Below are positions 1 through 22,194 of a DNA stretch of 23,639 bases, one piece after another. The number at the start of each line of letters is the position of its first letter. Position 1 is the first letter of the stretch. Under the pieces are notes generated by a model, which made no database searches, was not told the origin of the DNA, and saw nothing but the letters and a program-made list of their open reading frames with translations. The stretch lies in the IMG/VR virus record IMGVR_UViG_2874945390_000005; one strand, given 5' to 3'. The DNA comes from a virus (taxonomy: Duplodnaviria > Heunggongvirae > Uroviricota > Caudoviricetes). A program made the translations under genes and the position numbers.

Positions 1-1073
1 TCATTTGTTGATTTCAATTTTGTCCCATTCTCTCCCTCGGCTGTCCCTATACCGCGCCGCCATTGAATCTGATTTATGCCCGAGAAGACGTTGAGCAAAT
101 TTATCGCCAATCTGGTTCCGGTATAGCCTCGCTGACAGGCTACGCAGTTCATGGAATGTTGGCGGGTCTCCATCAAATGAGAGTCCGGAGGCATTTCTCG
201 CCTTTGTAAAATACTTTGATACTGTTTTCGGGGAAAGCGGATCGTGATGCTTTGATGCGATTATAGTTTCACTGCTGCTGGCCTCCCTGCATTTCTGTAG
301 TGTATCAACCAGTGAGATATTGAGCGCGTCAATCGTTAGCGTCAGCGGAATGGCGAGCTTAGCCCCTGTTTTACCCTGCTCAATGTGAAGATGGTTGTCG
401 TTTATGTCTGACCACTTCATTCTGCATAAATCGCCCACTCTCTGCCCTGTAATGACGGCCAAATCCATTGCCAGCCTCAGCCAGATAGGGAGAGGTTCGG
501 CTGCATGGTAAATCTCGACATACTCATTAGCTGTCAGCCTTGAGCGCCTTACTTCTGACTTTGCTGTGCGGGTTGCTGTTACCGGATTCGTAGCCACATG
601 CCCCTCGGCTATTGCTTCACGAAAAACGTCAACAAGGGTTGACCTGATTAATTTTGCGGAAGCCGCTTTACCTTCTGCTACGTAGGTATTTAGCATTGCT
701 GCCACCTCTTTCGTTGATATGTCAGTGAGCGGTTTGTCCGGCAATTTTCTTCGAATTGCCCTGATTTTGCTGGCGTAGTCGAGTAGAGTTTTCGGTCTGA
801 TGCCCCTCTCGCTGAGGATTGTTTCATATCGGTCAAGCCACGCATGAAGGGTGATTGAGTCAGCGCCTTTAATCCTGTCTATCAGTGACTCGCGCCCGCT
901 GTCTGATAGCAACTCAATGTTGGCCTGTATTGCTTCAGTGATTGCTATCCTCCTGTCTCGCCTAATCCGAACTCTTTACCCGTCCTTGGGTCCCTGTAGC
1001 AGTAATATCCATTGTTTCTTATATAAAGGTTAGGGGGTAAATCCCGGCGCTCATGACTTCGCCTTCTTCCCAT
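1..1073 (-). pseudogene. int: Lambda-type tyrosine integrase, reading frame broken near 945-962
   Basis: Minus-strand ATG at 1073-1071 overlaps the xis stop. The N-terminal frame gives MGRRRSHERRDLPPNLYIRNNGYYCYRDPRTGKEFGLG... then TAG at 947-945. The 303-codon ORF 1..912 continues in another frame (...ITEAIQANIE... ending REWDKIEINK) and carries the catalytic C-terminal domain. Both halves resemble lambda Int as recalled. Confidence 0.8.
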
Positions 1074-1269
1074 TTCTGATCCTCTTCAAAAGGCTACCTG
1101 TTACTGGTCGATTTAAGTCAACCTTTACCGCTGATTCGTGGAACAGATACTCTCTTCCATCCTTAACCGGAGGAGGGAATATCCTGCACTCGCGTACCCA
1201 TCGACGAACTGTTTCAAGGCTCCTTGGGCGTCGCTGGCGTGCGTTCCACTCCTGAAGTGTCAAGTACAT
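1051..1269 (-). CDS. xis: Excisionase, near-identical to phage lambda Xis as recalled
   Basis: 72-aa ORF MYLTLQEWNARQRRPRSLETVRRWVRECRIFPPPVKDGREYLFHESAVKVDLNRPVTGSLLKRIRNGKKAKS; ATG at 1269-1267; stop overlaps the int start. Confidence 0.9.
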   Translation of the reverse strand: MYLTLQEWNARQRRPRSLETVRRWVRECRIFPPPVKDGREYLFHESAVKVDLNRPVTGSLLKRIRNGKKAKS

Positions 1270-1353
1270 CGCAAAGTCTCCGCAATTACTCGCAAGGGAG
1301 CGAGTATTGGTTTATTTTCTCCAACAAAAAAGGAGCCGAAGCTCCTTTGATGA

Positions 1354-2010
1354 TTAAAATTCGAATTGTCTCGCCCGAAGGCTTTTCAGCATTGGTTTTG
1401 CCCGTTCGAAAAGGGCGCTTGCTTGGTCAAGTCGTGTCGCCTCCCTTAGCAGTACATCTCTGTTTTTCGTCACCGTGTAAAAAGTTTCAAACGCGATGTT
1501 ATACAGCTTGCTCGTGTATGATGAGTTCAGTTCCTTCAATATCGGGTACAGACGTTTGCAGATGTCCAGCGCATTCTCCATCTGTACCTGCATATAGCAA
1601 AGGAGGATGATTTCTTCGTCTGTGAATTGCTGCTGGATCTGCGGGTGCTGTTCCGCTTTGCCCGGGCTGAAATAGCAGTCTTCCAGTTTTTCGAACACTT
1701 CCCACGCCTGATCGGTTTCGAGCATTTTTGCGTGGCGGGCTGCGCCTCGTTCTGTCCAGAGGATGAGGTGCTTTGCTCGCGGTGCAACTAAGTTACTGTG
1801 AGTAACCTTGTTCTTAAATTCCCGCAATTCACCACCCTCCAGTTTAAAGTAGTGCTTACCACAAACAAAACGCCCGGCATTGCGCGTATAGTTCACTTTA
1901 ATGTTGTTGGTCTCAGTGCCGTAAAGTCGTGCCAGTAGTTCGGTAGTGATGACGGGGATGTGGTTATAGGTAATTGGGGAAAGGGATTCAACAGAAATTT
2001 GAGTAGCCAT
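1354..2010 (-). CDS. ORF6N/KilA-N-type domain phage protein (antirepressor-like), paralog A
   Basis: ATG at 2010-2008 (MATQISVESLSPITY...) preceded by AGGA. N-terminal about 110 aa show the ORF6N-like pattern (ITY..VITTELLARLYG...RHAKMLETDQAW). The ORF-track start at 2136 is probably an upstream artefact. Confidence 0.65.
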   Translation of the reverse strand: MATQISVESLSPITYNHIPVITTELLARLYGTETNNIKVNYTRNAGRFVCGKHYFKLEGGELREFKNKVTHSNLVAPRAKHLILWTERGAARHAKMLETDQAWEVFEKLEDCYFSPGKAEQHPQIQQQFTDEEIILLCYMQVQMENALDICKRLYPILKELNSSYTSKLYNIAFETFYTVTKNRDVLLREATRLDQASALFERAKPMLKSLRARQFEF

Positions 2011-2712
2011 GGTTTTATGTCCTATCGCATATTTTGAATTCACCCCTTTTGAGAGGGTGGTCGGGCGCTCAAAACCGGCGATAGACGGCGGGCATATTTC
2101 CCTTGCGGGTGTTTTATTAGCCGCACGCCCGACCATTGAATTCTCAATGTCGTAGACATAAAAAAATCCGCATAACTGACGGGGCGGTTTCCGCTATCGC
2201 AAAGGTGTTTTGAGCACCATGAAGCGGAATATAGCCCCGTTAATGCGGTGTTGTCAAATCATGTAGGCCTTATCTTGCTGTAAGCCGCGCCATTCGGGCT
2301 TTTCCCCACATTTGGGGAAAACTATCTTGTCAAAATCATGCAGCCTTTCGCTCTCCTTCGATGAGTTCCTCTATTTTGTGCACTCCAGCCTCGTTGTACC
2401 GAAATGTTTCAACCTGCTTGTCATTGTGCGCCGATTTGTCGATGAACCACTTCCCGTACTTTTCTGTTTTGAGCATGTAGGTGTTGGCTATGCGTCCTAC
2501 CTTGTTGGCTGAAATACCGTAGCGCTGGCCGACTTCCGTAGCAGAGTAGTAGTGCTCTGAGATAGCTGGCAGGGGTACAACATCGCGACCAACAATCGGG
2601 TTGAACACTCCAGCTACTGCTGCCTGCTTTGATTCTGAGGACAGATTCGGGAACATATTCACCAGTCGATCCGCCACGTTCAAAGCTATTTCCATGGCTC
2701 GCGCACGGTCTA

Positions 2713-3854
2713 AATAGCTGCGCTTAATACCGCTACACTTTTGCCAGTCCATGTTTGCCTCCGGGGAATGGGCTGACGGTTTCCATAAAATGGCGAACTT
2801 TTTTCAACAGTTGCCACATTGAGCGGCACTGATGATTACGCGTTATTGTGTCGTGAAGTGCCTGCCATAGCCGTTCAACATGATTCACCCATGGCGAGTA
2901 AACCGGCTGATAAATGACCCTGAACTTCGGGTTCTCCTTCAGCCAGCTCTGTGTTTCCCGGCTTTTGTGGATAATGTAGTTGTCCACGATCAGCGTGATG
3001 GTTTTCGCCCGACGGTATGTCGCTTTAAGCCGCTTCAGCAGGCTGATGAACAGCGCCGAACTTTTGCTGTTGCCGCCCACATAGCTGACTTTACCTGTCC
3101 CGCTGTGCAGCGCTCCGGCCAGATAATATTTTTCATTCTGTCCCGGCGTGACCACCCGTTTTTGCTGTCCGCGCAGTTGCCAGTCCGCACCGATTTTGGG
3201 ATGAAGATGGATATCCACTTCATCTTCATAAAAGACCGGATGCTCTGCGCTGCATTCGTCCAGTGCTTTATGGATTGCTGCCATCTTTTCATCTTTATGC
3301 GGGTCACGGATACGCAGAGTTGGCGCAGCCCTTCGCCACACAATCCCCGCAGACGGCAACCAGCGGCGAACGGTTCCGGCATTTAACTGGCAACAGGTTA
3401 TCTCATTGATTTTTATTGCCAGCAGTTCTGTACTCCAGCGTGAACGCTGGTAGCCAAAGTCGCCGGGAGAATGTTTTACCAGCTCACGTAACAGTGTGCA
3501 ACGGCCAGCGACGGGCACGCCCGGCAGGTAATGATTTCAGTCCCTCAACACCCGACTGCGTGAACCAGTTAATCCAGCGTCCAACAGAGGAACGGGCGCA
3601 GCAGAGCGTTCTGGCAACGTCGCTGACACGGTCGCCCCGGTGCAGCATCAGCATGGCAGTCAGTCTGCGGGCATAATTTTTATCGTGTGTTTTATGGATG
3701 GCTTTCTGCATCAGGCGTCGTTCGTCACGGGAAATTGGTGCTATGATCGGCATTGCTCAGTCCGGTTGGTGATTTGTTTTGATTTGGCGATTGATCAGAT
3801 CGCACAATCCGGGCTAAGTTCCCTCAAAGTGATCTACTATTCCGCGCAGCTATT
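2713..3854 (-). mobile_element. IS630-family insertion sequence with TA target duplication (2711-2712 and 3855-3856) in a CTAG target
   Basis: Terminal inverted repeat aatagctgcgc at 2713-2723, reverse-complemented at 3844-3854. Flanks reconstruct to ggtcTAggct. Encodes an IS630-type transposase. Confidence 0.8.
2733..3753 (-). pseudogene. IS630-type transposase split into two overlapping frames
   Basis: N-terminal HTH part is ORF 3484..3753 (MPIIAPISRDERRLMQKAIHK...RRWPLHTVT*). The DDE part is ORF 2733..3518 (...CTLLRELVKHSPGDFGYQRSRW...). The frames overlap at 3484-3518, indicating a small indel. Confidence 0.8.
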
Positions 3855-4404
3855 TAGGCTACTTTCTGGTTGCGGTACTGGTTGAGGATGGTTGGCAACC
3901 TTTTCGCGCTGATTGAAGTAGCCGTCCTCCAGTTTTTCGAACACGTCCCATGCCTGATCGGTTTCGAGCATCTTCGCGTGACGGGCGGCTCCGCGCTCTG
4001 TCCAGAGGATGAGGTGGCGTGCATTTGGGGCAATTTTCACAAAGTAGTTTAAAGCTACTTTGTGTTTTAGCGCGCGCAGCTCGTCACCAACGACCTTGTA
4101 GAAGTGTACCCCCTCAACAAAGCGCGACTTGTTTTCATGATGGTTTTGCCGGATGCGCACAACATCCGTTCCGTACAACTGCGCCAATAGTTCGCTGGTG
4201 ATGACGTTGGTTTGTTTGTAGGTGATTGGTGAAAGTGTTTCGACAGAAATTTGAGTATTCATAGCGTCCTCACATTGGCTTTTGCATTGAAGAAAGCTTG
4301 ACGGTGAACTCGCCGTAACGAGTTCAGATAAAAGAAATCCCCGCGAGTGCGAGGATTGTTATTCATTGCCGATATTCACCTTTATCTCAAACACCTTTAT
4401 CGGC

Positions 4405-4647
4405 TTATCTCCTTTGCATGGCACGTAATTTTTTCAGATGGTTCTCCTGCTCTGTTTCAGCCAGGATCTGGTGATATTCTCTGTGATCAATGTGTTCGAA
4501 TAAATTATTGAATTTTCTGATGCACACCCTTCCAGGATAGCCATCCATCCTCTTGAAGAATACTGAGTGATCAGTACTACGAATGATTTTTACTGGATAG
4601 CCAGCGCTATCGGTGTATATCTGACCACGTTGAATCAGAGCGAACAT
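4405..4647 (-). CDS. Small phage protein, 80 aa (DUF4222-like by recall, uncertain)
   Basis: ATG at 4647-4645 with GGAG/AGGA upstream; MFALIQRGQIYTDSAGYPVKIIRSTDHSVFFKRMDGYPGRV... Confidence 0.55.
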   Translation of the reverse strand: MFALIQRGQIYTDSAGYPVKIIRSTDHSVFFKRMDGYPGRVCIRKFNNLFEHIDHREYHQILAETEQENHLKKLRAMQRR

Positions 4648-4651
4648 TCCT

Positions 4652-4735
4652 TTATCTCCAGCGGCAAATCGAATACATCATCAGTGCCACCGCCAGTGCG
4701 GTTCCTACCTCTTTGAATGCTTCAGGCCAGGTCAT
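4652..4735 (-). CDS. Candidate 27-aa hydrophobic peptide (MTWPEAFKEVGTALAVALMMYSICRWR)
   Basis: ATG at 4735-4733 overlaps the TGA of the upstream gene (ATGA). GGGAGG sits 7 nt upstream. TAA at 4654-4652 lies 4 nt before the next gene's ATG. Below the ORF-track length cut-off. Confidence 0.3.
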   Translation of the reverse strand: MTWPEAFKEVGTALAVALMMYSICRWR

Positions 4736-5127
4736 TGATTCACCTCCCGCTCAATATTTTTAAGGTCATTCTCCGCATACAGTATCGCTGTCCTGGCTGC
4801 TCGCAACCGCGCTTTGGCGTTTTTCTCTTCACGTTCAAGTTTTGCCACAGCTTCTCGAAGAGCGTCCCGCTTTGCATAAAGTGATTTAATCTCAGACACG
4901 ATGTTTTCGCCGTTTCTCGCGCGGTCGAGAACAAGTTCGAATGGATCTAAAGCCAATCCGCATCGGTTGCAGGTAATCGTACGATTCACTTCTGAAATTG
5001 TTGTACGGATATGCTGACAGCATTTTTGCTCGACGCTTTTTCTGTCGGTTATCACAACGTTGAGAAGTCCTTCCTCCTCTGATTTTGGCTGCACCAGGGT
5101 GATAACATTATCGCTGTTATCGTCCAT
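4732..5127 (-). CDS. Phage protein, 131 aa, Cys-rich motif plus C-terminal coiled-coil-like region
   Basis: ATG at 5127-5125 preceded by AGGAGG with a 7-nt spacer (MDDNSDNVITLVQPK...). The ORF-track start at 5193 lies inside IS2 and is rejected. Confidence 0.6.
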   Translation of the reverse strand: MDDNSDNVITLVQPKSEEEGLLNVVITDRKSVEQKCCQHIRTTISEVNRTITCNRCGLALDPFELVLDRARNGENIVSEIKSLYAKRDALREAVAKLEREEKNAKARLRAARTAILYAENDLKNIEREVNQ

Positions 5128-5177
5128 CACTTCACCTCCTGCGGCGGTTCTGGTAGCGGCATCCAGTGGATTTGCCC

Positions 5178-6083
5178 CTATATTTCCAGACATCTGTTAT
5201 CACTTAACCCATTACAAGCCCGCTGCCGCAGATATTCCCGTGGCGAGCGATAACCCAGCGCACTATGCGGATGCCATTCGTTATAATGCTCGAACGCCTC
5301 TGCAAGGTTCTTTGCTGCCGTTAACCCGTTTGGTTTGGGCATGATACTGATGTAGTCACGCTTTATCGTTTTCACGAAGCTCTCTGCTATTCCGTTACTC
5401 TCCGGACTCCGCACCGCCGTGTTCTTCGGTTCAAGTCCCAACATCCGGGCGAACTGGCGTGTTTCATTAGCCCGGTAGCATGAACCATTATCCGTCAGCC
5501 ACTCCACTGGAGACGACGGAAGATCGTTGCCGAAGCGGCGTTCCACCGCTCCCAGCATGACGTCCTGTACTGTTTCACTGTTGAAGCCGCCGGTAGTCAC
5601 CGCCCAGTGCAGTGCCTCACGATCACAGCAGTCCAGCGCGAACGTGACACGCAGTCTCTCTCCGTTATCACAGCAGAACTCGAACCCGTCAGAGCACCAT
5701 CGCTGATTGCTTTCTTTCACGGCCACTCTGCCTGTATGTGCCCGTTTCGATGGCGGTACAGCAGGTTTTCGCTCAAGCAACAGCGCATTCTGGCGCATGA
5801 TCCGGTAAACACGTTTGGCATTGATCGCAGGCATACCATCAAGTTCTGCCTGTCTGCGAAGCAGCGCCCATACCCGACGATAACCATACGTGGGCAGCTC
5901 TCCGATAACATGGTGTATACGGAGAAGCACATCCGTATCATCAGTGTGACGACTGCGGCGGCCATCCATCCAGTCATCGGTTCGTCTGAGAATGACGTGC
6001 AACTGCGCACGCGACACCCGGAGACAACGGCTGACTAAGCTTACTCCCCATCCCCGGGCAATAAGGGCGCGTGCGCTATCCAC
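5178..6083 (-). CDS. insD: IS2 transposase OrfB (InsD)
   Basis: 301-aa [52 protein letters not shown]... matches IS2 InsD as recalled. Confidence 0.9.
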
Positions 6084-6363
6084 TTTTTTGCCCGTCCATA
6101 TTCAACGGCTTCTTTGAGGAGTTCATTTTCCATCGTTTTCTTGCCGAGCAGGCGCTGGAGTTCTTTAATCTGCTTCATGGTGGCAGCAAGTTCAGAGGCA
6201 GGAACAACCTGTTCTCCGGCGGCCACAGCAGTAAGACTTCCTTCCTGGTATTGCTTACGCCAGAGAAATAACTGGCTGGCTGCTACACCATGTTGCCGGG
6301 CAACGAGGGTGAACCGCCCCGGGAATCCTGGAGACTAAACTTCCTGAGAAAGAGGTAAACAGG

Positions 6364-6686
6364 ATGACTAAAAATACTCGTTTTTCCCCCGAAGTCCGTC
6401 AACGGGCAGTCCGTATGGTTCTGGAAAGTCAGGGCGAATATGACTCACAATGGGCGACAATTTGTTCCATTGCTCCAAAGATTGGCTGTACGCCGGAGAC
6501 TCTGCGTGTCTGGGTTCGCCAGCATGAGCGGGATACCGGGGGCGGTGATGGAGGGCTCACCACCGCTGAACGTCAGCGTCTGAAAGAGCTGGAGCGTGAA
6601 AATCGTGAACTGCGCCGCAGTAACGATATCCTTCGCCAGGCTTCCGCTTATTTTGCGAAGGCGGAGTTCGACCGCCTCTGGAAAAA

Positions 6687-6690
<4 letters not shown>
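6364..6690 (+). CDS. IS629 OrfA
   Basis: 108-aa [45 protein letters not shown]..., IS3-family OrfA with HTH. Confidence 0.9.
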
Positions 6691-7573
<883 letters not shown>

Positions 7574-8551: not shown

Positions 8552-8718
8552 AGCGTGAGCGGTAATTACGCAGGCGCGGGTCGATATATTCAGGGAATTT
8601 GTCTATTGTCGCTTTTCGCAACGGTCTCATTGCTGTTTCGTTTGTTCGGTCCTTTGAGGTAGCCTGAGTTTAACGGACACTCCTTCCTGAAATAGAATGG
8701 CATCAGAAGGAGCTAATA

Positions 8719-9021
8719 ATGAGCAGAAAAACCCAACGTTACTCTAAAGAGTTCAAAGCCGAAGCTGTCAGAACGGTTCTTGAAAATCAACTTTCGATCA
8801 GTGAAGGCGCTTCCCGATTATCCCTTCCTGAAGGCACTTTAGGACAATGGGTTACCGCCGCCAGAAAAGGGCTCGGTACTCCTGGTTCCCGCACGGTGGC
8901 TGAACTGGAATCTGAAATTCTGCAACTGCGTAAGGCGTTAAATGAAGCTCGCCTTGAGCGAGATATATTAAAAAAAGCAACAGCGTATTTTGCACAGGAG
9001 TCGCTGAAAAATACGCGTTAG
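8719..9021 (+). CDS. IS600 OrfA
   Basis: 100-aa ORF MSRKTQRYSKEFKAEAVRTVLENQLSISEGASRLSLPEG...; A7G slippery run near 8970-8980. Confidence 0.9.
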   Translation: MSRKTQRYSKEFKAEAVRTVLENQLSISEGASRLSLPEGTLGQWVTAARKGLGTPGSRTVAELESEILQLRKALNEARLERDILKKATAYFAQESLKNTR

Positions 9022-9056
9022 TCGAACAATGGCGACAACAATTTCCCATTGAAGCG

Positions 9057-9875
9057 ATGTGTCAGGTATTTGGTGTATCCAGGAGCGGTTATTACAACTG
9101 GGTACAGCATGAACCCTCAGACAGAAAACAAAGTGATGAGCGGCTAAAACTGGAGATTAAGGTGGCACATATCCGCACTCGCGAAACATATGGAACCCGG
9201 CGGCTCCAGACGGAGCTGGCAGAGAATGGCATCATCGTTGGTCGTGACCGACTGGCACGTCTTCGTAAGGAGCTAAGGCTACGCTGTAAGCAGAAACGCA
9301 AGTTCAGAGCGACTACGAACCCGAACCACAATCTGCCAGTTGCGCCAAATCTGCTGAACCAGACGTTCGCTCCTACAGCACCAAATCAGGTCTGGGTGGC
9401 GGACCTGACGTATGTTGCCACACAGGAGGGATGGTTGTACCTCGCTGGCATCAAAGATGTTTATACGTGCGAAATTGTCGGCTACGCCATGGGAGAGCGC
9501 ATGACAAAAGAGCTGACAGGTAAAGCCCTGTTTATGGCGCTCAGGAGCCAGCGCCCACCTGCCGGGCTAATCCACCACTCTGATCGAGGTTCACAGTACT
9601 GCGCATACGATTACCGGGTCATACAGGAGCAGTTTGGTCTGAAAACATCAATGTCGCGTAAAGGTAACAGTTACGACAACGCTCCGATGGAAAGCTTCTG
9701 GGGAACGCTGAAAAATGAGAGCCTGAGCCACTATCGTTTTAATAACCGGGATGAAGCCATCTCAGTAATACGGGAATACATTGAGATTTTCTACAATCGT
9801 CAGCGTCGTCACTCTCGTCTGGGGAATATCTCCCCGGCAGCCTTCAGGGAAAAATATCATCAGATGGCTGCTTAA
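9057..9875 (+). CDS. IS600 OrfB (DDE transposase)
   Basis: 272-aa ORF with an IS3-family integrase core (...HHSDRGSQYCAYDYRVIQEQFGLKTSMSRKGNSYDNAPMESFWG...). Normally expressed as an OrfAB fusion by -1 frameshift. Confidence 0.9.
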   Translation: MCQVFGVSRSGYYNWVQHEPSDRKQSDERLKLEIKVAHIRTRETYGTRRLQTELAENGIIVGRDRLARLRKELRLRCKQKRKFRATTNPNHNLPVAPNLLNQTFAPTAPNQVWVADLTYVATQEGWLYLAGIKDVYTCEIVGYAMGERMTKELTGKALFMALRSQRPPAGLIHHSDRGSQYCAYDYRVIQEQFGLKTSMSRKGNSYDNAPMESFWGTLKNESLSHYRFNNRDEAISVIREYIEIFYNRQRRHSRLGNISPAAFREKYHQMAA

Positions 9876-10282
9876 AAAAAGAACAAATGGTAGTGTCCGC
9901 TATTGCCAGTACACCTCATTGACTTGATGAAATTGTGCACTTCAACCGAGGTTTGCAGCGGCGCGTTACTGAAGCCTTTAGGCCACACCCCGAACTTCTC
10001 TTTGTAGGTATGAGCGCACCATCCGTCACTCAGTGGCTTACCTGTCGCGTTGCGGTAATTCTGATAGCCCTTGATCTCACTCCACCACCGCTGTTTTTCC
10101 TCGCGGCTGTATTCGCGTTTCCCTTTGTTTACGCGAGAGAGTTTTCGATCGCGGTCTGTTGCCACATCATCGCCACCAAGAGGACGAAACCCACATTTGG
10201 GACACATGTGTACACCAGCAGGCTTCATGAAGTGGCATTTGGGGCATTCTCTGGGAAGTTTTTCAGCTTTTAACCTCGCCAC
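9872..10282 (-). CDS. Zinc-ribbon protein (CPKC...CPKC), 3' end replaced by IS600 sequence; native part 9919..10282
   Basis: GTG start at 10282-10280 lies 20 nt upstream of the helicase stop. MARLKAEKLPRECPKCHFMKPAGVHMCPKCGF... The last 15 codons are read from the IS600 right end. Confidence 0.5.
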   Translation of the reverse strand: MARLKAEKLPRECPKCHFMKPAGVHMCPKCGFRPLGGDDVATDRDRKLSRVNKGKREYSREEKQRWWSEIKGYQNYRNATGKPLSDGWCAHTYKEKFGVWPKGFSNAPLQTSVEVHNFIKSMRCTGNSGHYHLFFF

Positions 10283-17777: not shown

Positions 17778-18596
17778 ATGTGTCAGGTATTTGGTGTATC
17801 CAGGAGCGGTTATTACAACTGGGTACAGCATGAACCCTCAGACAGAAAACAAAGTGATGAGCGGCTAAAACTGGAGATTAAGGTGGCACATATCCGCACT
17901 CGCGAAACATATGGAACCCGGCGGCTCCAGACGGAGCTGGCAGAGAATGGCATCATCGTTGGTCGTGACCGACTGGCACGTCTTCGTAAGGAGCTAAGGC
18001 TACGCTGTAAGCAGAAACGCAAGTTCAGAGCGACTACGAACCCGAACCACAATCTGCCAGTTGCGCCAAATCTGCTGAACCAGACGTTCGCTCCTACAGC
18101 ACCAAATCAGGTCTGGGTGGCGGACCTGACGTATGTTGCCACACAGGAGGGATGGTTGTACCTCGCTGGCATCAAAGATGTTTATACGTGCGAAATTGTC
18201 GGCTACGCCATGGGAGAGCGCATGACAAAAGAGCTGACAGGTAAAGCCCTGTTTATGGCGCTCAGGAGCCAGCGCCCACCTGCCGGGCTAATCCACCACT
18301 CTGATCGAGGTTCACAGTACTGCGCATACGATTACCGGGTCATACAGGAGCAGTTTGGTCTGAAAACATCAATGTCGCGTAAAGGTAACAGTTACGACAA
18401 CGCTCCGATGGAAAGCTTCTGGGGAACGCTGAAAAATGAGAGCCTGAGCCACTATCGTTTTAATAACCGGGATGAAGCCATCTCAGTAATACGGGAATAC
18501 ATTGAGATTTTCTACAATCGTCAGCGTCGTCACTCTCGTCTGGGGAATATCTCCCCGGCAGCCTTCAGGGAAAAATATCATCAGATGGCTGCTTAA
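17778..18596 (+). CDS. IS600 OrfB (copy 2)
   Basis: Protein identical to the copy 1 OrfB. Confidence 0.9.
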   Translation: MCQVFGVSRSGYYNWVQHEPSDRKQSDERLKLEIKVAHIRTRETYGTRRLQTELAENGIIVGRDRLARLRKELRLRCKQKRKFRATTNPNHNLPVAPNLLNQTFAPTAPNQVWVADLTYVATQEGWLYLAGIKDVYTCEIVGYAMGERMTKELTGKALFMALRSQRPPAGLIHHSDRGSQYCAYDYRVIQEQFGLKTSMSRKGNSYDNAPMESFWGTLKNESLSHYRFNNRDEAISVIREYIEIFYNRQRRHSRLGNISPAAFREKYHQMAA

Positions 18597-18989
18597 AAAA
18601 AGAACAAATGGTAGTGTCCGCTATTGCCAGTACACCTCATACTGGCCCCGTCGCGATCGCCTGGATACAGCTATCGACTACCTGAACACTCAGGCCGGTG
18701 AAGGTATCATCCTGAATGCTGATCACATCCCTGAGCGTGACGTCACTCCCGCATCAGATGAGATTATCAATGAGATCACTCAGGCAATCACCGAAATTAA
18801 CAAGACATGGGATGACCTGCTTCCCTTATGTTCCAAAACATTCCGTCGCACGATTGCATCACATGAATATCTCAGTCAGGAAGAAGCTGTCAAAACGCTT
18901 GATTTTGTCAAAAAGAAAGCTGCCAGAAACAAGGCCACGGCGGAAGCGAAAATTCACGCCACCACGGAAAATAGCAGCGAGGCCGTGTC

Positions 18990-20379: not shown

Positions 20380-21528
<1,149 letters not shown>

Positions 21529-21548
<20 letters not shown>

Positions 21549-22194
21549 TGGAGCACCTGTGTTGTTCTGAGGTGAGCATATCACCTCTGTTCAGGTGGCC
21601 AAATTCAGTGTGCCACTTTACATTATCAAGTTGCTTGTTACGTGATGCCAAGATGTTCTGTTTGGCAATTTCACAGAGTTCTTCATCGCTCTTATCGGTC
21701 ATGTAAATAAACTGACCAGCACCTCTTGAAGCTTTAACCATCTTCACAATCCGGTATCCATCAGGAAGATTATTAATCACGTCTGGGATATTCTCAGGAA
21801 AAGTACCAAAACCATCATTATCTGTATATGTGAAGTAAACATACGGCTTTTGTGACAATTCATCCTGAATCTCAAATTCTGATGGCTCAATAGCTGATTG
21901 CATCAAGGTAACTTTGCTGTAAGCGTCATCAAGTTTAAGACGCTGTGCTTTTAGCAGTGGGTAATATTCACGCTCAAGATTAAATAATGCTTCACTCTTG
22001 CAAATATCAGGCATCTCTTGAGGTTCAGGAGTCACAAAGATGATTTCCTTTGGTGACATCTTTAGCTCTTGCTCAAGCTTAATTCTTTCATTGTGTTCTT
22101 TACGCTGAATAGTGATAGCTGGATGTTCAGTCTGTGGTGACCAGTCACCGAAGCTATCAATCTTTCTGCCGTTAATAAATAAATCGTTTGTCAT
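21529..22194 (-). CDS. Unknown protein in a low-GC block, 3' end replaced by the IS911 terminus; native part about 21622..22194
   Basis: ATG at 22194-22192 with GAGGAAA upstream ([44 protein letters not shown]...). The last 30 or so codons are read from the IS911 inverted repeat. Confidence 0.45.

Follow-up and report, generated by a model that had tools for sequence, protein, structure and literature searches.

The stretch of viral DNA analysed here (IMG/VR record IMGVR_UViG_2874945390_000005, 23,639 nucleotides, in the following called the window) contains a gene for an ORF6N-domain protein that is interrupted by an insertion sequence, and the transposase gene of this insertion sequence is itself broken into two reading frames. 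The question is raised how an element with a broken transposase gene came to lie in this gene, and in particular whether the reading frame was lost before or after the insertion.

The element and its flanks read ggtc-TA-AATAGCTGCGC...GCGCAGCTATT-TA-ggct, or in a fuller form ...CGCACGGTC-TA-AATAGCTGCGCTTAATA......TATTCCGCGCAGCTATT-TA-GGCTACTT..., and TA dinucleotides are present at positions 2711-2712 and 3855-3856. The following features were delineated:

2711..2712, unstranded: left TA of the duplicated target (the TA of CTAG), from the empty site with a single TA and the flank alignments
2713..3854, minus strand (transposase strand): IS630 copy with an 11-bp internal deletion, 1142 bp, from the full-length alignment to intact 1153-bp copies
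2713..2741, unstranded: terminal inverted repeat beside the 3' end of the transposase gene, with a perfect core of 11 nt (AATAGCTGCGC) that is extended imperfectly to about 29 nt
3826..3854, unstranded: terminal inverted repeat beside the 5' end of the transposase gene (...GCGCAGCTATT), from the repeat finder and sequence reading
3855..3856, unstranded: right TA of the duplicated target, from the empty-site comparison and the flank alignments

The core of the terminal inverted repeats comprises 11 perfect nucleotides, and an imperfect continuation to about 29 nt can be followed by eye. The repeat finder ranked the pair 2710-2729 / 3838-3857 highest among the inverted repeats of the region (20 nt, 90% complementarity, with the CTA and TAG flanks included). 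Uninterrupted homologues were available for comparison. In E. coli RMDEC465 and FDAARGOS_943 the empty site is GGTC-TA-GGCT with one TA, while the window has two, and a BLAST alignment of the RMDEC465 locus with the window yielded two collinear blocks, the overlap of which is exactly the TA (2 nt). This comparison directly demonstrates the TA duplication and the CTAG target. The same flanks, CTA on one side and TAG on the other, enclose the copies at 14 sites, namely all 11 deleted copies and three intact ones, the two aligned reference copies and the closest plasmid copy (see below), and a CTAG target preference of IS630 is named in the title of Tenzen and Ohtsubo (1991), which is cited in PMC2170065. 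The initial annotation had described an 11-bp terminal inverted repeat, TA dinucleotides on both sides, an element length of 1142 bp and a CTAG target with a duplicated TA. The repeat finder and the alignments bore out the ends and the length, and the empty-site alignment is in agreement with the proposed target.

In silico removal of positions 2713-3856 yielded GGTCTAGGCT at the joint and a single minus-strand ORF of 260 aa, the two parts of which are located in the window as follows:

3857..4262, minus strand: 5' part of the ORF6N anti-repressor-like gene, codons 1-135 and the first base of Leu136 (ORF6N, E 2.5e-20)
2336..2710, minus strand: 3' part of the ORF6N anti-repressor-like gene, codons 137-260 (restored ORF; phrog_7940 covers residues 124-255)

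The uninterrupted site GGTCTAGGCT with its one TA is found exactly in E. coli RMDEC465 and FDAARGOS_943, and the joined sequence has end-to-end matches in four E. coli chromosomes (98.3-99.7%), in which the gene is annotated 'ORF6N domain-containing protein'. Pfam ORF6N (PF10543) was found at residues 12-98 of the host protein with 73 bits (cut-off 27.8), the restored protein matches PHROG 1726 'anti-repressor' end to end (E 8e-92), and a separate C-terminal module, phrog_7940, covers residues 124-255. The insertion point is codon Leu136 (CTA), which is part of a Pro/Gln-rich linker between the ORF6N and the C-terminal modules. Compared with ORF6N phage anti-repressors (Ant-like, PHROG 1726), the restored protein is 100% identical to WP_001095965.1 (260 of 260 residues). 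The designation anti-repressor comes from the family annotation, and the protein is best described as putatively anti-repressor-like. In the phage collection a full-length homologue of the host gene was not found, and only a 214-nt match with 90% identity was obtained. The gene adjoins a paralogue (1354-2136, with ORF6N and P22_AR_C), an excisionase gene and an integrase gene, and it shares these three neighbours with the ORF6N gene of E. coli prophages. A comparison of the restored ORF with homologues in related prophages had been suggested at the outset, and it led to an uninterrupted, identical homologue; the single ORF6N gene predicted from the joined flanks was therefore confirmed, while its predicted length of about 255 aa had to be corrected to 260 aa.

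In contrast to the intact WP_001095965.1, the gene in the window is split after residue 135 into ORFs of 141 aa and 138 aa, both with extensions encoded by the insertion sequence. The ORF of the 5' half runs to position 3837 and stops six codons into the element, and the chimeric ORF of the 3' half is opened by an ATG at position 2752 in the end of the element. The insertion inactivates the host gene as a gene for a single protein.

RefSeq copies labelled 'IS630-like element IS630' were used as a proxy for the IS630 reference, and the identity to these copies was 99.5-99.9% apart from one gap. The element is present in 1,300 of 5,426 complete E. coli genomes (megablast), and the best full-length matches in E. 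coli are all 1153 bp long and annotated 'IS630-like element IS630 family transposase'. The window copy was aligned with two intact 1153-bp references, from pCFSAN029787_01 and from E. coli SMS-3-5, each of which has one transposase gene of 1032 nt; the annotations of the two copies are 'IS630-like element IS630 family transposase' and 'IS630 family transposase'. The first and last bases were identical in the alignment with both copies, and a single gap was found after window position 3499:

3499..3500, unstranded: junction of the 11-bp deletion, AGATATGCTCA missing on the plus strand, placement ambiguous by 1 nt (alignment columns 801-811)

This gap is the only length difference from intact IS630, and it lies inside the ORF overlap at 3484-3518. 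Both ends of the element are identical to those of three intact annotated copies. When the 11 bp were put back, only one of 1153 bases differed from an intact IS630 copy on the companion plasmid (see below), and thus chance is not at issue. The restored transposase has 343 aa and scored 254 bits against the NCBIfam model NF033545 'IS630 family transposase' (cut-off 100). The initial annotation had assigned the element to IS630, had estimated it to be about 11 bp shorter than the roughly 1.15 kb of IS630, and had suggested a small internal deletion. The assignment holds, since outside the gap the identity to intact copies is 99.9% and the restored transposase matches NF033545; the lengths were measured as 1142 and 1153 bp; and the deletion was located by the alignment. 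One small internal deletion accounts for both the shortfall of 11 bp and the frame break of the transposase. Different ends in a reference alignment would have spoken against the assignment, and the ends turned out to be the same as in intact IS630 copies.

The consequences of the deletion for the transposase gene are two overlapping ORFs, which had been noticed before at 3484-3518 and were found again:

3484..3753, minus strand: transposase fragment 1, 89 aa, N-terminal HTH DNA-binding part with an out-of-frame tail ending in RRWP-LHTVT and a stop (HTH_23, E 7e-11)
2733..3518, minus strand: transposase fragment 2, ORF of 261 aa, second HTH and complete DDE_3 catalytic domain (DDE_3, E 1.5e-24)

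Pfam searches detected HTH_23 and HTH_29 in the 89-aa ORF and DDE_3 in the 261-aa ORF. Four residues of the 343-aa transposase, FEHI (85-88), are lost through the deletion, which lies after the first HTH and before the second HTH/DDE part. Downstream of it the whole transposase reading is shifted, so that fragment 2 is in +1 with respect to the frame of fragment 1. The tail of the 89-aa ORF is specific to the deletion. An autonomous element would have a single uninterrupted transposase ORF, and ORFs of 89 and 261 aa were found instead. The copy is unable to make its own transposase and is a defective member of the IS630 family, not a functional insertion sequence. It is virtually certain that a defective IS630 is inserted at CTAG in the ORF6N-domain gene. 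The element is the ordinary, known IS630 in a crippled state, and the phenomenon is also already known.

The distribution of the deleted form bears on its possible history. The deletion-specific 89-aa ORF was used for an exact-sequence look-up, which returned one record, CP026836.1 (5.1 Mb), with at least 10 places, and a look-up with the 261-aa ORF added an eleventh locus in the same record, so that there are at least 11 deleted copies. CP026836.1 is given as Shigella boydii in PMC12817139, and window positions 484-6753 are identical to a locus of this chromosome over 6270 bp, which places the window in the S. boydii chromosome CP026836.1. Eleven copies were compared. Each of them is 1142 bp long and lies at a different locus, and they are identical to one another except for a single position:

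3395..3395, unstranded: base split, A in the window copy and five other chromosomal copies, C in the remaining five of the 11 deleted copies compared as well as in the closest intact copy of the plasmid

The presence of a continuous transposase ORF upon resequencing would have argued against a genuine frame break; instead, the frame break recurs at no fewer than 11 loci. Elsewhere, a deleted copy was absent from the top-ranked matches in 5,426 E. coli genomes and 72,556 plasmids, among which every full-length match spanned 1153 bp. These searches are informative, because a deleted copy would have ranked first. The deletion junction (40 nt, exact match) was also not found in JGI metagenome contigs. 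A scan of GTDB species representatives carries no information, as both the deletion junction and the intact control junction were absent there.

Intact copies were found on NZ_CP026837.1, a plasmid of 213 kb from S. boydii ATCC 49812, which can be recognised as the invasion plasmid by its mxi-spa, ipa and osp genes. Consecutive accession numbers and the species name suggest that CP026836.1 and CP026837.1 are from one strain. On the plasmid, IS630 is present in three copies that have the full 1153 bp without gaps. They show 1, 2 and 6 mismatches when compared with the restored window copy and differ among themselves at several positions, and at least six IS630 fragments are found in addition. 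A search of the plasmid with the restored element did not reveal a deleted copy, and the deleted lineage seems to be confined to the chromosome. The sole difference between the closest plasmid copy and the restored window copy is the C at window position 3395. Accordingly, the C variant with its five copies equals the closest intact plasmid copy minus 11 bp and nothing else. This establishes the order: intact, then deleted, then deleted with one base change. The A at position 3395 identifies its six carriers as a younger branch of the deleted form, and, as read from the copies, the element appears to have multiplied after each step of this series. The occurrence of the deleted form in at least 11 places of one chromosome is the only mildly notable point, a footnote and not a discovery.

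Some further observations were made at other IS630 copies. In CP026836.1 at 944001-950270 another deleted copy lies between ORFs of 90 aa and 230 aa, both of the SbmA_BacA family, and it apparently splits an sbmA-like transporter gene. The ATG in the IS630 end downstream of the transposase (2713-2752) reads outward, and gene callers consequently give chimeric ORFs. At another IS630 copy this outward ATG yields a predicted product of 374 aa that runs into an ALAD (hemB-like) gene.

The following history is proposed. IS630 is a DDE transposon of the IS630/Tc1/mariner type, and a cut-and-paste insertion of this copy at CTAG duplicated the TA. The 11-bp deletion would have arisen once, and the deleted element would since have been a non-autonomous transposon, mobilised in trans by the transposase of intact IS630 copies; the three intact copies on the virulence plasmid of the strain are a possible source of this transposase. 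One mobilisation of the younger variant would then have struck the ORF6N gene. The same deleted element is present at 10 or more other sites, and hence the deletion most likely predates the insertion in the window; the window copy moreover has the later base change, from which we infer that it was already defective when it inserted. Judging from this copy pattern, an insertion of an already deleted element with transposase supplied in trans is quite likely, and the explanation as a whole, a trans-mobilised deleted IS630 at Leu136 of a 260-aa gene, is regarded as having a high probability. Biochemical precedents exist. [quoted passage not shown] One aspect is not accounted for by the proposed history. 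If donors were chosen at random and one deleted copy was present at the start, the chance that 10 successive insertions all stem from the deleted lineage is about 0.3-0.4%. The ratio of at least 11 deleted copies to three intact plasmid copies is therefore not predicted by equal-chance sampling, and it would call either for intact copies in the chromosome as well or for selection against intact copies.

As an alternative, the sites could at first have held intact IS630, and the deletion and the later base change could have spread among them by recombination, so that the window copy would have been functional when it inserted. IS copies within one genome are commonly homogenised by gene conversion. 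The same ORF6N::IS630 junction also occurs in short-read assemblies of about 16 other isolates (e.g., ERR200293, ERR2287283 and SRR4180506), and CP026836.1 is the only record in which the deletion-specific 89-aa ORF was detected. This is weak evidence, because short-read contigs break at repeats and variant bubbles. The contigs of the other isolates with this junction end 25 nt into the insertion sequence, short of the deletion site. Apart from one position, the 11 copies agree over all of the 1142 bp, which would demand at least 10 conversions for the deletion that left no other difference, and more for the base change. In addition, the three plasmid copies, which are in the same cell, are still different and unconverted, and transposition accounts for the copies and for their target duplications in one step. 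Gene conversion is consequently rated as unlikely. The copies also speak to the reality of the gap. Repeats are error-prone in assemblies, and the deleted form was found in one assembly only; an assembly or polishing artefact would mean that the 11-bp gap is false and the real copy is intact. Yet the plasmid from the same project retains three intact copies, and the 11 chromosomal copies exhibit a locus-specific 6:5 base difference, which indicates that they were individually resolved. The loss of 11 bp in non-repetitive sequence is also not typical of long-read or polishing errors, and such an artefact is very unlikely.

A different type of alternative concerns the two ORFs themselves. If a ribosomal or transcriptional frameshift, or a cooperation of the 89-aa and 261-aa products, yielded an active transposase, the deleted element would be autonomous. 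In the strain, the deleted variant is more numerous than the intact form, the whole DDE_3 domain is kept in the second ORF, and a two-ORF layout has a precedent in the IS630 family, i.e., ISFtu1 with a slippery AAAAAAG and about 50 copies (PMC1978527). Against this, the transposase of intact IS630 is encoded by a single ORF of 343 aa, which only the deletion has split. The required shift is +1, not -1, and in the 50-nt open overlap neither an X XXY YYZ heptamer nor, by eye, a +1-prone codon before the stop of the first ORF was detected. An A6 at sense position 1051, which lies a long way downstream of the overlap, is the only homopolymer of at least six bases in the element, and a fused product would be four residues short in the linker between the HTH motifs. 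A working two-frame layout is thus rated as very improbable. Little credence is also given to a role of the 89-aa HTH stub, which, if expressed from the 11 or more copies, might bind IS630 ends and thereby modulate, most plausibly inhibit, transposition, or which together with the second ORF might restore activity. Truncated-transposase repressors exist in other elements. If the activity of the stub together with the second ORF were real, it would explain why the deleted form outnumbers the intact copies in the strain. The preferred reading remains that the element was deleted before it reached the ORF6N gene, and that it was moved by the transposase of intact copies.

Compared with known systems, the window copy has the same ends, TA duplication and CTAG target as IS630 of Shigella (1153 bp, a single 343-aa DDE transposase, TA of 5'-CTAG-3'), and it differs by the frame-breaking 11-bp deletion and by the presence of the deleted form in 11 or more copies in the chromosome. 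It resembles non-autonomous derivatives, i.e., bacterial MITEs and the internally deleted Tc1/mariner elements of eukaryotes, in that both of its ends are preserved while its own transposase is lost, and in that many near-identical copies occur beside intact relatives that are able to supply the enzyme. MITEs have sizes of tens to a few hundred bp and are devoid of transposase coding capacity. A classification as a MITE was rejected, since the element retains 1142 of 1153 bp and almost all of the coding sequence. The concept of non-autonomous transposons in prokaryotes is treated in a review (PMC10969869). A shared defect is also found in ISFtu2 of Francisella tularensis, in which one and the same position carries a premature stop in all 19 copies (PMC1978527). 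ISFtu1 of the same species, an IS630 family member, has two consecutive ORFs and a high copy number, but these ORFs are joined by the slippery AAAAAAG (PMC1978527), whereas the window element is without such a signal and its split is secondary to the deletion. The assignment to insertion sequences with programmed frameshifting in the style of ISFtu1 or IS3 was rejected as well, as the overlap contains no slippery motif and the intact copies have a single ORF.

The surroundings of the locus are in a similar state, and the window is an IS-riddled prophage remnant. The integrase gene (1-1073, minus strand) is frameshifted: an E. coli homologue of 357 aa aligns with 1073-960 in one frame (its residues 1-38) and with 990-4 in another (residues 29-357). 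An intact excisionase gene is present at 1054-1269. The prophage can probably no longer leave its site. Two IS600 copies in the same orientation are located at 8652-9922 and 17376-18639 (about 1.27 kb, 99.6-99.8% identical to annotated IS600), and the repeat finder reported that they are identical to each other over 300 nt. The second copy starts exactly at the end of the RecT ORF (16725-17378) and appears to truncate recT. The pair brackets about 7.5 kb with genes for a helicase, a LexA-like repressor, HicB and Rha, a layout that could act as a composite transposon or as a deletion substrate. Further IS3-family material was found at 5178-6083 (minus strand), 6364-7573 (plus strand) and 20380-21584 (minus strand); it includes an IS2 TnpB ORF (725 bits to PRK09409) without an adjacent orfA, a second element with an orfB broken into pieces of 118 aa and 222 aa, and a third element near the right end. 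The tandem ORF6N genes at 1354-2136 and 3857-4262 have N-terminal domains with 77-81% nucleotide identity (repeat families D2 and D3) and unrelated C-terminal modules, P22_AR_C and phrog_7940, respectively, which looks like domain shuffling between paralogues. The prophage was already degraded, as is evident from the frameshifted integrase gene and several other insertion sequences, and the loss of the ORF6N gene was therefore probably neutral.

For Shigella, the decay of genes through insertion sequences is well documented (e.g., PMC7373316), and the locus is of little importance beyond its correct annotation; it is one more IS-mediated gene loss in a decayed Shigella prophage. It also illustrates neatly, on a small scale, how a defective insertion sequence of nearly full length went on multiplying in nested stages. 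The 11-bp junction and the base at position 3395 could serve as lineage markers for the S. boydii clone, and the system would be a convenient natural test of how freely IS630 transposase acts in trans in bacteria.
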